Below are positions 33,487 through 36,821 of a stretch of 64,000 nt of DNA, one piece after another. Made by a program: the position numbers and the translations under genes. How positions within the stretch are numbered: the first letter of the stretch is position 1; each line of letters opens with the position of its first letter. The DNA comes from a phage, in sequence record OR896157.1; one strand, given 5' to 3'. The notes below the pieces were generated by a model. That model was not told the DNA's origin, searched no databases, and saw only the letters and a program-made list of their open reading frames with translations.

Positions 33487-36195
33487 TTAGAAATCAAACA
33501 TATTGTCTAAAGACGCTTTTTCTTCATAGTCTAATCCAGAAGCTTCTGACATACCAGCAAGTGGCTTAACGAAAGACTTTTGGAACAGAGTCGTATAGTC
33601 CAACCAAGCCAGAACATCTTGACGAATTTCCTGCGGAAGTTCAGTACCTGATGGCCAGGCGATACACTTGTCACCGAATGGGTTACCCTGACGAAGTGGA
33701 AGAACCATCACCTTGTTACCCTCGAGAATCGGAGTGACAGAGAATCCTGCCGTTGCACGATTATAAGTCAGTGCACCACGAACGTGATATGGACATTTCA
33801 GACCAGGGAAACCATTATCGTCATATTTACCAATGTCATTACAAGTTTTAACTTCTGCAATAACTTTGTAGTCCAGCTGACGATATTCCTTCTCAAACTG
33901 TTTGTAGTATTCTTGCAGTGATTCTTCGCCTTCTTGAACCATACGACGAATACTTTCTTCCAGTGCTTTCTGAACTGCTTTTGGCGTAGAAGACTGCTGA
34001 GTTTCCATGCCCATAATCTTCAAGTGTGGTTCAGCATAACGCTTATCTTCCATGTCGTAAACGTTCAGTGCATAACGTTTCTTAGCTTTCCAGAATCCAC
34101 CACAACCTTTTGAACCAAGCGGCGGACATGAAATAGCTTCTCGGTCCATGTGCATAAGATGTTCACGGTTATTGAAATATTCGCACAGTTCACGATAAGC
34201 AGTATCAATCATCGGTTCCATTTTCTTCTTACCGAATTGGTTCATAAATTCAACCACTTCGTCAGTCGTTTTGAAACGTTCAAGACCTACTTTTTCAATA
34301 ACTTTGTCAACAGAAACGTAGATTGAGTCAGTATCACCTGCTGCGATGAAATCAAATCCTTCAGTTCCACACACTTTATTCAGATACTCGTTAACTTTAC
34401 GAGCAATCCAACGAATACCTACTTGACCAAACAGTGTAATAGCAGATGCGTTACGAAGGTCATAATAACGGAAGTAGATGTTACCCAAAGCACCATAAAG
34501 ACTGTTGATAAGAATCTTACGGTTCAACTGGTTTGTGTTTGCTAGAATAGCAGCAGCTTCACATCGAGCCAGCATAGTTTCCAACACCAACTTCGTGTAC
34601 TTATTCAGTGATGCTTTCTGTTCGTCAGTGTACTGAGTGTAACGAGTTTCATCTGGAGTATCAATGTCACCGAATACGCCAGCTGCCAGAACTTTCTTAA
34701 TTTCTTCTGCGTTACGTTCTTCTGCGAACATCTTTTTCTTCCAATCTTTACGCTGGAAGAATACCTTAGCGATTTCTACTGGGATGACACCTTCAATATC
34801 TTTACGATACATCCAACCGTTCGGTGAGCAAGAATACTCGTCACTTGGACGTGGTGCAGTCTTATTGATATAAGCTTCAATATCATAAAGTTTGAATTGA
34901 CCAACAATAGTTTCCGGAGAAATATTCACCTGACGAATGATACTCGGATACAGAGATGTTAAGTCAAAACTCATGATGTACTTACGAGCGCATGCTAATG
35001 GTTCAAATACATATGCACCTGGATAACTTTGCTTGATATGACGCTTACCTTGAGGAACAACTTTGTTCTGTTCTTTCAGGGAGTTAAAGATAATTGCGTC
35101 CCAAGTTTTAATCGGAGACATTACACCACCAAACGGCATCTTGGCATAATAAGACATACTAAGTGCCAGGTCAATGAATCCACGAACTCGGTCAATACCA
35201 CCTACGGACTCAACGTCCATAATGTTATAGCTAATGTATCGTTGGTGATTTGTTTCACGAAGTTTGTTAATTGGACCATCGTATGGCAACTTACCACGTT
35301 TAGTCTCGTATAGAGCGATGTAGTCCAAGTTATAAGTTGGTTGGTTCGTGAATGAATACTTCTTGTACAAATCCATGTAATCCAGAATTGTTACACCATC
35401 AATACTGAATACTTCTTTTTCACCGTACATGTTCTGAATGAGTTTTGAATTCACTCGATTGATTGGAGAGAATCGTTTCATTGAACGTTCACCCAATACA
35501 TGCTTAACACGGTTCATGATGTATGGAATATCGAAGCCTTCAATGTTCCAACCCGTGAAGATTGCTGGACGCTTTTGTTCCCAGAGATTGATATATTCCA
35601 GAAGAAGTTCTTTCTCTGAATGGAAAGGCATGTACACTACACGGTCGAGAATATGTTGTGGAACTTCGTCTCCACCTTCTTTATCACTTCGTGCAGCTAA
35701 CTTCGCGTCCCATTCTGAAACTGAGCCATACAGAGAATCTAACAAATCGAAAACGTAGAACTTATCATCGATTGAATCATAATGAGTGATTGCATCGATT
35801 TCGTACATAGCTTTCATTGGGTCTGGGAATTTATCACCTGTAACTTCGATGTCACAGTTCGCAACACGAATGAATTTCTTGTCATAAACAATTTCAGAAC
35901 CATAAGTGTCGGAGATATAAGCGAGTTTGAAGTCATCCATACCCATGGCTTCAAGACCGATATCTTCCATACGACGAATCCAATCACGAGCATCTTTCAT
36001 GGTTGGGAATGTGTTTTTGATACATGGTTTCCCATAGATATCAAAGAACTTTGTCTTCACACCTTGTTGAGCATGAGAAAACATAGTTGGAGAATATTCA
36101 ACTCGTCGTTGACGTTCTACACCATTGGAGTCAATATAACGTTCAATGATGTCATTACCTGCGGTTTCAATAGAGATATAAAATTCTTGTGCCAT
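33487..36195 (-). CDS. 43: DNA polymerase gp43 (family B)
   Basis: 902 aa; exonuclease and polymerase motifs of family B (e.g. ...DIEV...DTDS...); matches remembered T4 gp43. Confidence 0.95.
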   Translation of the reverse strand: MAQEFYISIETAGNDIIERYIDSNGVERQRRVEYSPTMFSHAQQGVKTKFFDIYGKPCIKNTFPTMKDARDWIRRMEDIGLEAMGMDDFKLAYISDTYGSEIVYDKKFIRVANCDIEVTGDKFPDPMKAMYEIDAITHYDSIDDKFYVFDLLDSLYGSVSEWDAKLAARSDKEGGDEVPQHILDRVVYMPFHSEKELLLEYINLWEQKRPAIFTGWNIEGFDIPYIMNRVKHVLGERSMKRFSPINRVNSKLIQNMYGEKEVFSIDGVTILDYMDLYKKYSFTNQPTYNLDYIALYETKRGKLPYDGPINKLRETNHQRYISYNIMDVESVGGIDRVRGFIDLALSMSYYAKMPFGGVMSPIKTWDAIIFNSLKEQNKVVPQGKRHIKQSYPGAYVFEPLACARKYIMSFDLTSLYPSIIRQVNISPETIVGQFKLYDIEAYINKTAPRPSDEYSCSPNGWMYRKDIEGVIPVEIAKVFFQRKDWKKKMFAEERNAEEIKKVLAAGVFGDIDTPDETRYTQYTDEQKASLNKYTKLVLETMLARCEAAAILANTNQLNRKILINSLYGALGNIYFRYYDLRNASAITLFGQVGIRWIARKVNEYLNKVCGTEGFDFIAAGDTDSIYVSVDKVIEKVGLERFKTTDEVVEFMNQFGKKKMEPMIDTAYRELCEYFNNREHLMHMDREAISCPPLGSKGCGGFWKAKKRYALNVYDMEDKRYAEPHLKIMGMETQQSSTPKAVQKALEESIRRMVQEGEESLQEYYKQFEKEYRQLDYKVIAEVKTCNDIGKYDDNGFPGLKCPYHVRGALTYNRATAGFSVTPILEGNKVMVLPLRQGNPFGDKCIAWPSGTELPQEIRQDVLAWLDYTTLFQKSFVKPLAGMSEASGLDYEEKASLDNMFDF

Positions 36196-36235
36196 GAGTT
36201 TCCTTAGTTTTTCCTATAGACCGAGTGATTGGTCT
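36196..36235 (-). promoter_or_regulatory. gene 43 translational operator (5-bp stem, 8-nt loop AAUCACUC, then SD AAGGAAA)
   Basis: minus strand AGACC-aatcactc-GGTCT then ...ctaaggaaactcATG; loop is one substitution from the remembered T4 operator loop AAUAACUC. Confidence 0.55.
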
Positions 36236-36272
36236 TTGGTATGTCTATTATACTCCGCTCTGCTGATAGCAG

Positions 36273-36292
36273 AAAGGGCCCGAAGGCCCTTT
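36273..36292 (-). terminator. hairpin AAAGGGCC-TTCG-GGCCCTTT between regA side and gene 43
   Basis: GC stem, CGAA loop, followed by UUUCUGCU. Confidence 0.45.
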
Positions 36293-36294
36293 AA

Positions 36295-36492
36295 TTAAAG
36301 CGTAATTTCTTCATACTGAATTACATCATTTTCGTCTTTGTATGGCAGAGTAATCACTGTTCCTTCTGGATAAAGAGGAGTGCCATCTGACGAGAACTGA
36401 CTTTTAAGTGAAGCAATTTGACGAGCTAGTTGTTCTTGTGGAGTACCTTCAAACATTATGCACCTATCGTGTATTTTGATTTGAGAGTCCAT
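36295..36492 (-). CDS. hypothetical protein (65 aa)
   Basis: minus-strand ORF overlapping regA 3-prime end. Confidence 0.35.
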   Translation of the reverse strand: MDSQIKIHDRCIMFEGTPQEQLARQIASLKSQFSSDGTPLYPEGTVITLPYKDENDVIQYEEITL

Positions 36493-36821
36493 TCAGATTT
36501 CTGCTGGAATGTGATAACACGGAAGTTATTCTGCATTTCAGCAAGATGAACATCCGGAGTCACGATATCAAGTAAGCCCCATCCTTGTAACAGTTGGGCA
36601 ATTGAATCTCGACGGATGTAGTCTTCAGAATCAATAGTAACAGGACGACCATCAAGCTTCAACATTTCTTTGAAGTGAACGATGTAGTACTTGCCCTGTT
36701 TCTGAAGAATGTGGCAACTTTGATATAGTACCTTATCTTTGTTATTAGCAATACCCATACGAGTTAGGGTTTCTTTCACTTTCAGAAAATCTTCAGGTTG
36801 TTTCAGAGTAATTTCAATCAT
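36456..36821 (-). CDS. regA: RegA translational repressor
   Basis: 121 aa; MIEITLKQPEDFLKVKETLTRMGIANNKDKVLYQSCHILQK.G.YYIVHFKEML nearly identical to remembered T4 RegA. Confidence 0.9.
   Translation of the reverse strand: MIEITLKQPEDFLKVKETLTRMGIANNKDKVLYQSCHILQKQGKYYIVHFKEMLKLDGRPVTIDSEDYIRRDSIAQLLQGWGLLDIVTPDVHLAEMQNNFRVITFQQKSEWTLKSKYTIGA

Follow-up and report, generated by a model that had tools for sequence, protein, structure and literature searches.

The hairpin ahead of gene 43 in a CC31-type phage as a probable counterpart of the T4 and RB69 DNA polymerase operator

Introduction

The gp43 operator has been known as a kind of element since the late 1980s, and the DNA analyzed here, a phage-derived stretch of 64,000 nucleotides (sequence record OR896157.1; hereafter the window), raises the question of whether the hairpin preceding its DNA polymerase gene is such an operator. 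The polymerase gp43 is an autogenous translational repressor, which binds a hairpin upstream of the start codon together with a sequence overlapping the ribosome-binding site (Uzan and Miller, PMC3014915). This hairpin comprises 18 bases in T4 and 16 in RB69, the 3' AC of the loop -UAAC- is especially relevant for binding, and some T4-related gp43 proteins do not autoregulate (PMC3014915). The gp43 of RB69 is described in the literature as an autoregulator. For the CC31 group, neither a description of the operator nor a report of gp43-RNA binding was found in the literature searched, and none of 33 CC31-group genomes carries an annotation of it. A preliminary description of the window had proposed that a stem-loop and a Shine-Dalgarno (SD) sequence in front of the polymerase start codon form a conserved operator, through which autoregulation is retained.

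Identity of the phage and organization of the gene 43 region

By its sequence, the window can be assigned to a CC31-like (Karamvirus) T4-type phage: in this region, identity amounts to 99.3% with Enterobacter phages SonariX and vB_Ecl_id4496 and to 92% with CC31. Gene 43 (33487..36195, minus strand), recognized as an open reading frame and by the annotation of relatives, encodes a family B DNA polymerase of 902 aa, which is both the regulated product and the presumed repressor. This protein is 78% identical to T4 gp43 over 898 aa; over the first 200 residues, T4-type gp43 is 76% and RB69 gp43 62-63% identical to it.

The gene order, 62-regA-(43.1)-43, is that of T4. The regA gene (36456..36821, minus strand), distinguished by the open reading frame list, the annotation of relatives and the T4 order, encodes a translational repressor of 121 aa. 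Between regA and gene 43 lies ORF 43.1 (36295..36492, minus strand), which encodes a hypothetical protein of 65 aa and is annotated as 43.1 in CC31; its start is located 37 nt inside the 3' end of regA. Two types of ORF 43.1 C-terminal ends occur in the CC31 group, ...DENDVIQYEEITL (the window, L003 and L005) and ...DEEGVVQYEAAQI (L001, L002 and L004), and some relatives, which gave two-piece matches, have about 200 extra bases in the ORF 43.1 interval.

Structure of the gene 43 leader

In the mRNA sense (minus strand), the leader reads ...ACCAA-AGACC-AAUCACUC-GGUCU-AUAGGAAAAACU-AAGGA-AACUC-AUG, and every element of the preliminary description, i.e., the stem, the loop and the SD sequence before the polymerase start, was found in its place. 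The hairpin (36218..36235) consists of a 5-bp stem, AGACC (36235..36231) paired with GGUCU (36222..36218), and an 8-nt loop, AAUCACUC (36223..36230), which is presumed from the comparison with T4 and RB69 to be the sequence-specific contact of gp43. The hairpin is distinguished by its sequence and by folding, covariation, RNAalifold and covariance model analyses. It is followed by a 12-nt spacer, AUAGGAAAAACU (36206..36217), delimited in the leader alignment, the SD sequence AAGGA (36201..36205), located 5 nt 5' of the AUG, the pentanucleotide AACUC (36200..36196) and the gene 43 ATG (36195..36193). Relative to the AUG, the hairpin thus spans positions -40..-23 and the SD sequence positions -10..-6.

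The SD sequence is part of a ribosome-binding block, CUAAGGAA, which the alignment shows to be kept among T4-type leaders. The spacer differs from the AUAAACU of T4 and Citrobacter phage Moon by a 5-nt GGAAA insertion, which creates a second AGGAAA directly 3' of the stem, where RB69 has its SD sequence. The same 12-nt form of the spacer is present in L186 and L187.

Promoter block and neighboring hairpins

Four elements follow one another 5' to 3' on the mRNA strand between ORF 43.1 and gene 43: (i) a UUCG hairpin, (ii) CUGCUAUCAGCAG, (iii) the GGAGTATAAT block and, about 11 nt further on, (iv) the hairpin described above. The G+C-rich UUCG hairpin, AAGGGCC-UUCG-GGCCCUU (36274..36291, minus strand), lies just past the ORF 43.1 stop codon; it was recognized by folding and by its T4 counterpart, has the character of a terminator or an RNA stabilizer and is kept upstream of gene 43 in T4-type phages. 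The GGAGTATAAT block includes a TATAAT -10 hexamer (36247..36252, minus strand), which is conserved in T4, RB69, JS98 and others. The consensus of the MotA box of T4 middle promoters is TGCTT, centered near -30, and a MotA-box-like TGCTAT (36266..36271, minus strand) can be read from the sequence at about -31..-26 from the putative transcription start. From this arrangement we infer a middle-type (MotA-type) promoter, which would start the transcript near 36240, leaving about 5 nt ahead of the stem. A sigma-70 promoter scan of the leader gave no -35 partner for the TATAAT hexamer and an intrinsic-terminator scan of the leader gave nothing, the UUCG hairpin being missed because it has no U-run; both results are consistent with a -35-less promoter and a U-run-less hairpin, and are positive evidence for neither.

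Two further features of this interval were noted. The first is a GGAG tetranucleotide (36253-36256, minus strand) within GGAGTATAAT (36247-36256), directly 5' of TATAAT, which is conserved in the leaders of T4, RB69, JS98, CC31-type and other phages. GGAG is the core motif of the RegB endoribonuclease; the context in the window, GGAGUAUAAUA, fits the strong-site consensus GGAGRAYARAA only partly. Since RegB processing stimulates gp43 synthesis (PMC3014915), a RegB cut at this GGAG on read-through transcripts is conceivable. The second is a small hairpin, CUGCU-AUC-AGCAG (36260-36272, minus strand), which overlaps the MotA-box-like TGCTAT and belongs to a segment of about 15 nt that is present in the CC31 group, missing in T4 and located between the UUCG hairpin and GGAGTATAAT; the CGGCAG and CGGTAG variants of relatives keep its pairing only partly.

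Stability and uniqueness of the hairpin

Structure prediction, by which the preliminary description had proposed to check the element, gave the hairpin as the minimum-energy structure in all four contexts folded (28, 45, 80 and 135 nt), with a free energy of the hairpin itself of -6.5 kcal/mol. The first of the outcomes named in that description as refuting the operator, a different minimum-energy fold, thus did not arise. Compared with shuffled sequences, the z-scores of the folds were modest (-1.3 to -2.9), and each strand of the 64-kb window holds about 118 perfect hairpins of 5 bp with an 8-nt loop, so the thermodynamic fold alone was rejected as evidence. The same figures are what would favor a chance hairpin, or an inverted repeat acting at the DNA level and bound by a dimeric DNA-binding protein near the promoter; we regard this explanation as extremely unlikely, for reasons that come from the comparison of leaders given below.

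The combination of loop and stem is far more restricted. Octamers of the form AAU[A/C/U]ACUC occur 17 times in the window, and only the one in the gene 43 leader is flanked by a stem (5 bp, with 0-2 bp at the others). A covariance model (R1), built from an alignment (A2) of 19 distinct loop-anchored hairpins, detected a single site in the 64-kb window, 36215..36238, with a score of 32.8 bits, which is partly circular because the window sequence belongs to the training alignment; the next best score was 12.3 bits, and the absence of further sites, which is free of this circularity, is the informative part of the scan. A permissive Rfam scan of positions 35900..36700 returned only sub-threshold chance matches to snoRNA and PreQ1 models; no gp43-operator model was matched, and the scan is uninformative on the hairpin itself.

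A pseudoknot between ACUC of the loop and the upstream GAGU of GGAGUAUAAU was also considered and dropped: both segments are invariant for other reasons, so that covariation is no test of it, and GGAGU would be missing from any transcript that begins at the neighboring promoter. The review of Uzan and Miller likewise states that there is no evidence for a pseudoknot in the gp43 operator (PMC3014915).

Comparative analysis of gene 43 leaders

Two sets of leaders were compared. The first, of 66 leaders (53 of them unique), combined loci located through the gp43 N-terminus only, and thus blind to the RNA, with loci taken from the annotated records of T4, RB69 and twelve genera at a greater distance. 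The second was collected with a pattern that fixed only GGAGTATAAT and the loop frame AAUNACUC and left the stem free. All 24 pattern matches located ahead of a gp43 gene had 4-5 consecutive flanking pairs, whereas 65 of the 95 matches found elsewhere had no flanking pair at all; among these 95, only three unrelated families reached at least 4 pairs, in weak stems rich in A/U and G.U pairs.

Across the 19 distinct hairpins from T4-type phages, 91.6% of the stem cells are paired, as against 23-45% after a shift of the 3' arm by 1-3 columns, and pairing fails only at the fifth pair, in those lineages whose stem is 4 bp long. Changes on both sides were observed in four of the five stem pairs; the covariation score was 0.923, compared with 0.278 in shuffles, none of which (0/500) reached the observed value. 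The natural stems include AGACC/GGUCU (the window phage), AGCCU/GGGCU (T4), AGACU/GGUCU, GGUCU/GGACC, AUUCU/GGAAU, AGUCC/GGACU, AGAC/GUCU, AGUC/GACU and AGGC/GUCU. RNAalifold, applied to 14 whole leaders with no structure supplied, predicted this hairpin alone. In the same 19 hairpins, the loop is invariant at positions 1, 5 and 6, and it is conserved in 18 hairpins at positions 2, 3 and 7 and in 16 at position 8. The leader alignment across T4-like phages proposed in the preliminary description thus yields a near-invariant loop on a covarying stem, a pattern indicating that the stem is under selection for pairing and the loop for sequence.

These results bear on two of the alternatives. Because the arms covary rather than keep their sequence, they point to RNA pairing and not to a DNA palindrome read by a protein; in addition, the conserved loop is asymmetric, and in every case the element is found on the sense strand directly ahead of gene 43. 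Together with the controls, the covariation pattern effectively refutes the chance or DNA-palindrome explanation. According to the second alternative, the hairpin is mainly a 5'-terminal stabilizer, which shields gene 43 mRNA from 5'-end-dependent decay (RNase E), with no gp43 site here. The putative transcription start about 5 nt upstream of the stem, the same geometry in T4 and the retention of stem pairing whatever its sequence would all suit such a role. A stabilizer needs a stem only, however, and the loop is invariant at 5-7 of its 8 positions across polymerases whose identity falls to 54-60% in the compared stretches; its identity with the studied gp43 contact of T4 and RB69 is left unexplained. 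We therefore hold a stabilizer in place of a gp43 site to be improbable, although the two roles are compatible and do not exclude each other.

RegA was rejected as the ligand of the hairpin, RegA sites being described as unstructured and A/U-rich (PMC3014915).

R1 searches of Acinetobacter, RB49-like, Slopekvirus, Pseudotevenvirus, Aeromonas, KVP40-like and Pseudomonas relatives revealed no convincing operator, and the element is therefore confined to Tevenvirinae-like genera. Several unusual leaders were encountered. In L190 (361-377), the variant GUCC-UAAUAACUC-GGAC has a 4-bp stem and a 9-nt loop, with an unpaired U where T4 has the closing U.G pair, and is still scored at 20.8 bits by R1. 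In L189 (371-400), a T4-type hairpin, AUUCU-AAUAACUC-GGAAU, lies only 9 nt from the AUG, with no recognizable SD sequence between them (UAAAACUAAAUG). In the KVP40-like Vibrio phage V09 (L042:366-381), a weak 3-bp hairpin, ACG-UAACAACUU-GUG / CACGU-AACAACUU-GUG, abuts the SD sequence of gene 43 and holds -CAAC-; it was missed by R1 and is too weak to call.

Comparison with characterized operators

The likeness to T4 asserted in the preliminary description was borne out by the T4 genome, in which the corresponding region consists of AAGGGGC-UUCG-GCCCCUU, GGAGTATAAT and AGCCU-AAUAACUC-GGGCU-AUAAACUAAGGAAUAUCUAUG. In both phages the hairpin occupies the same place, between the terminator-like hairpin on the regA side with the GGAGTATAAT block and the SD sequence of gene 43, and they share the 5-bp stem, the 8-nt loop, the AUA after the stem and the CUAAGGAA block. 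The preliminary description had given the T4 loop correctly, as AAUAACUC; the loop of the window, AAUCACUC, agrees with it at 7 of 8 positions, A5 and C6 among them. T4 differs in having (i) A instead of C at loop position 4, (ii) U.G and C-G as stem pairs 1 and 3, where the window has C-G and A-U, (iii) an SD spacer of 7 nt, compared with 12 nt including the GGAAA insertion, and (iv) no counterpart of the extra 15-nt segment, CUGCUAUCAGCAGAG, that lies between the UUCG hairpin and GGAGTATAAT. Of the two hairpins, that of T4 is the one for which binding has been demonstrated.

The leader of RB69, AGAC-AAUAACUC-GUCU-AAAGGAAAUUAAAUG, has in common with the window the outer stem bases AGAC/GUCU, the loop frame AAUNACUC and an AGGAAA 2 nt after the stem. 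It differs in its 4-bp stem (16-base hairpin), in the A at loop position 4 and in the SD sequence abutting the hairpin. The distance from hairpin to SD sequence is accordingly 12 nt in the window, 7 nt in T4 and about 2 nt in RB69, and that from hairpin to AUG is 22, 18 and about 12 nt, respectively, both values for the window being among the longest in the set; the 3' flank AUA...CUAAGGAA is kept among the leaders, though the spacer of the window runs to 12 nt.

The JS98-type, PM2-type and other AAUCACUC operators, known from sequence, have a loop identical to that of the window at the same site upstream of gene 43; they differ in their spacers and in their stems (AGAC/GUCU, AUUCU/GGAAU, AGUCC/GGACU, GGUCU/GGACC and AGUC/GACU). 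The T4 gene 32 operator is similar in that a replication protein represses its own mRNA when free of DNA. It acts through a pseudoknot and an unstructured A/U-rich tract, with cooperative single-strand binding of another protein at another locus, and the hairpin of the window lies outside that class.

Taken as a whole, the comparison supports homology of the hairpin, in position and in sequence, with the gp43 operators of T4 and RB69. The conserved-operator reading of the preliminary description is upheld by the position, the loop sequence and the compensatory stem changes across T4-type genera.

Variation of the operator loop

The single loop substitution relative to T4 that had been pointed out for the window is C for A at position 4. 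This is the only freely variable position of the loop, with A in 8, C in 7 and U in 4 of the 19 distinct hairpins, and never G. As these counts indicate, AAUCACUC is a major natural allele, which rivals the T4 loop in frequency among natural operators and is present in the JS98 group, the PM2 group and several others. Citrobacter phages Moon and CF1 have A and U, respectively, at position 4, although their gp43 proteins are 98.6% identical over 695 aa, so the state of this position does not follow polymerase divergence; the two leaders also differ in one compensated stem pair (A-U vs. C-G) and in the 5-nt GGAAA spacer indel. The occurrence of such a difference next to near-identical polymerases argues that the change at position 4 is tolerated and is not a change of function. 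As a caveat, both winners of the original SELEX experiment with T4 gp43 reportedly kept A at position 4, so T4 gp43 itself might prefer A there.

The GGAAA indel (AUAGGAAAAACU vs. AUAAACU) is common to the CC31 group, CF1 and L186 (L187:376-387 and L186:376-387) and absent from Moon (compare L176). Its distribution suggests that leader segments are exchanged, or evolve, independently of gene 43.

Another possibility is that the C at position 4 and the long spacer with its second AGGAAA define a distinct specificity class, in which a co-evolved CC31-type gp43 discriminates against the A-type operators of T4 and RB69. The polymerases of T4 and RB69 are reported to differ in RNA specificity in a similar way. 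We consider such a class unlikely; if it were real, the A/C/U variation would reflect several polymerases, each matched to its own RNA, and position 4 would not be neutral.

It might also be supposed that the C at position 4 and the longer spacer have uncoupled the hairpin of the CC31 lineage from gp43 autoregulation, leaving a conserved relic or the site of another factor. Some T4-related polymerases indeed do not autoregulate (PMC3014915), the SD spacer is 5 nt longer than that of T4, and the operator has been lost outright in L185 while being kept in its close relative L186. Against this, the hairpin is identical in all 10 CC31-group loci examined individually, even though intergenic bases close to it vary, and in 33 of 33 CC31-group genomes identity over the 73-nt leader is at least 95%; moreover, C at position 4 is combined with different, compensated stems in several independent lineages (L186, L192, L195, L202 and L208). 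Since the lineages with C have compensated stems and the CC31-group leader is conserved, continued selection is indicated rather than decay, and uncoupling seems quite unlikely.

The pair L185 and L186 (positions 250-400 of each) deserves a separate description. Their gp43 N-termini are almost identical (MKFYVSVESVGNDIVERYIEDGVEKT...) and their upstream regions completely different: L186 combines a terminator-like hairpin with the promoter block and the operator GGUCU-AAUCACUC-GGACC, and in L185 (a contig of 158,099 bp) these are replaced by an A/T-rich sequence devoid of a hairpin, an arrangement that looks like a natural operator-less gene 43.

A further loop variant was found in Serratia phage PS2 (NC_024121), whose gene 43 leader hairpin is GUCC-AGCAACCU-GGAC (L201:360-375 = L023:1460-1475). 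The loop contains -CAAC- and is unlike T4 AAUAACUC at exactly four positions. The PS2 loop fits the "major variant" obtained in the first SELEX with T4 gp43, which contains -CAAC- (PMC3014915), has four changes among the eight loop nucleotides and reportedly reads exactly AGCAACCU; whether any natural phage carries the SELEX-variant loop was a question of the 2010 review (PMC3014915). No report of a SELEX-variant-like loop in PS2 was found in the literature searched, and full-text searches with AAUAACUC and AGCAACCU yielded nothing but unrelated papers on siRNA and miRNA. A relative of PS2 (L200:360-376 = L022:1460-1476) has a 9-nt version of the loop, GAGCAACCU. The gene 43 frame of PS2 (L023:1492 onward) ends after 308 codons and is named "putative split hinge connector of DNA polymerase" in the GenBank record, so that the polymerase gene may be split in the very phage whose loop resembles the SELEX variant.

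Discussion

The hairpin ahead of gene 43 in the window is, in our judgment, likely to be the CC31-group (Karamvirus) orthologue of the translational operator of T4 and RB69 gene 43, repressing gp43 synthesis in the following way. The leader of gene 43 mRNA would fold into the hairpin with a 5-bp stem and an 8-nt loop at -40..-23. Accumulated gp43 that is not engaged on primer-template DNA would bind the loop (AAUNACUC) and the 3' flank toward the SD sequence, and the bound protein would block access of the 30S subunit to the SD sequence and so cap polymerase synthesis. The synthesis of the polymerase would in this manner be tied to the amount of gp43 off DNA, as described for T4 and RB69. By analogy with these phages, gp43 autoregulation is probably retained in the window phage, as the preliminary description had suggested, and its cognate polymerase presumably tolerates C at loop position 4. 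The main uncertainty of the operator reading is the geometry: with 12 nt between hairpin and SD sequence and 22 nt to the AUG, occlusion of the SD sequence depends on a footprint reaching 3' of the hairpin.

The direct value of this finding is small, as it adds the CC31/Karamvirus group to the range of a classic autoregulatory element. The set of leaders compared is worth more than the single instance, since it constitutes a natural mutational map of the gp43 operator: a loop AAUHACUC, a stem of free sequence and of 4-5 bp, and a spacer of 9-23 nt to the AUG. Such a map has some value because, according to the review, no gp43-RNA complex has been structurally resolved (PMC3014915). The operator could be annotated automatically with a small model of the R1 type. 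Position 4 as the single free position of the loop and the loop of PS2 are more interesting than the instance of the window itself.
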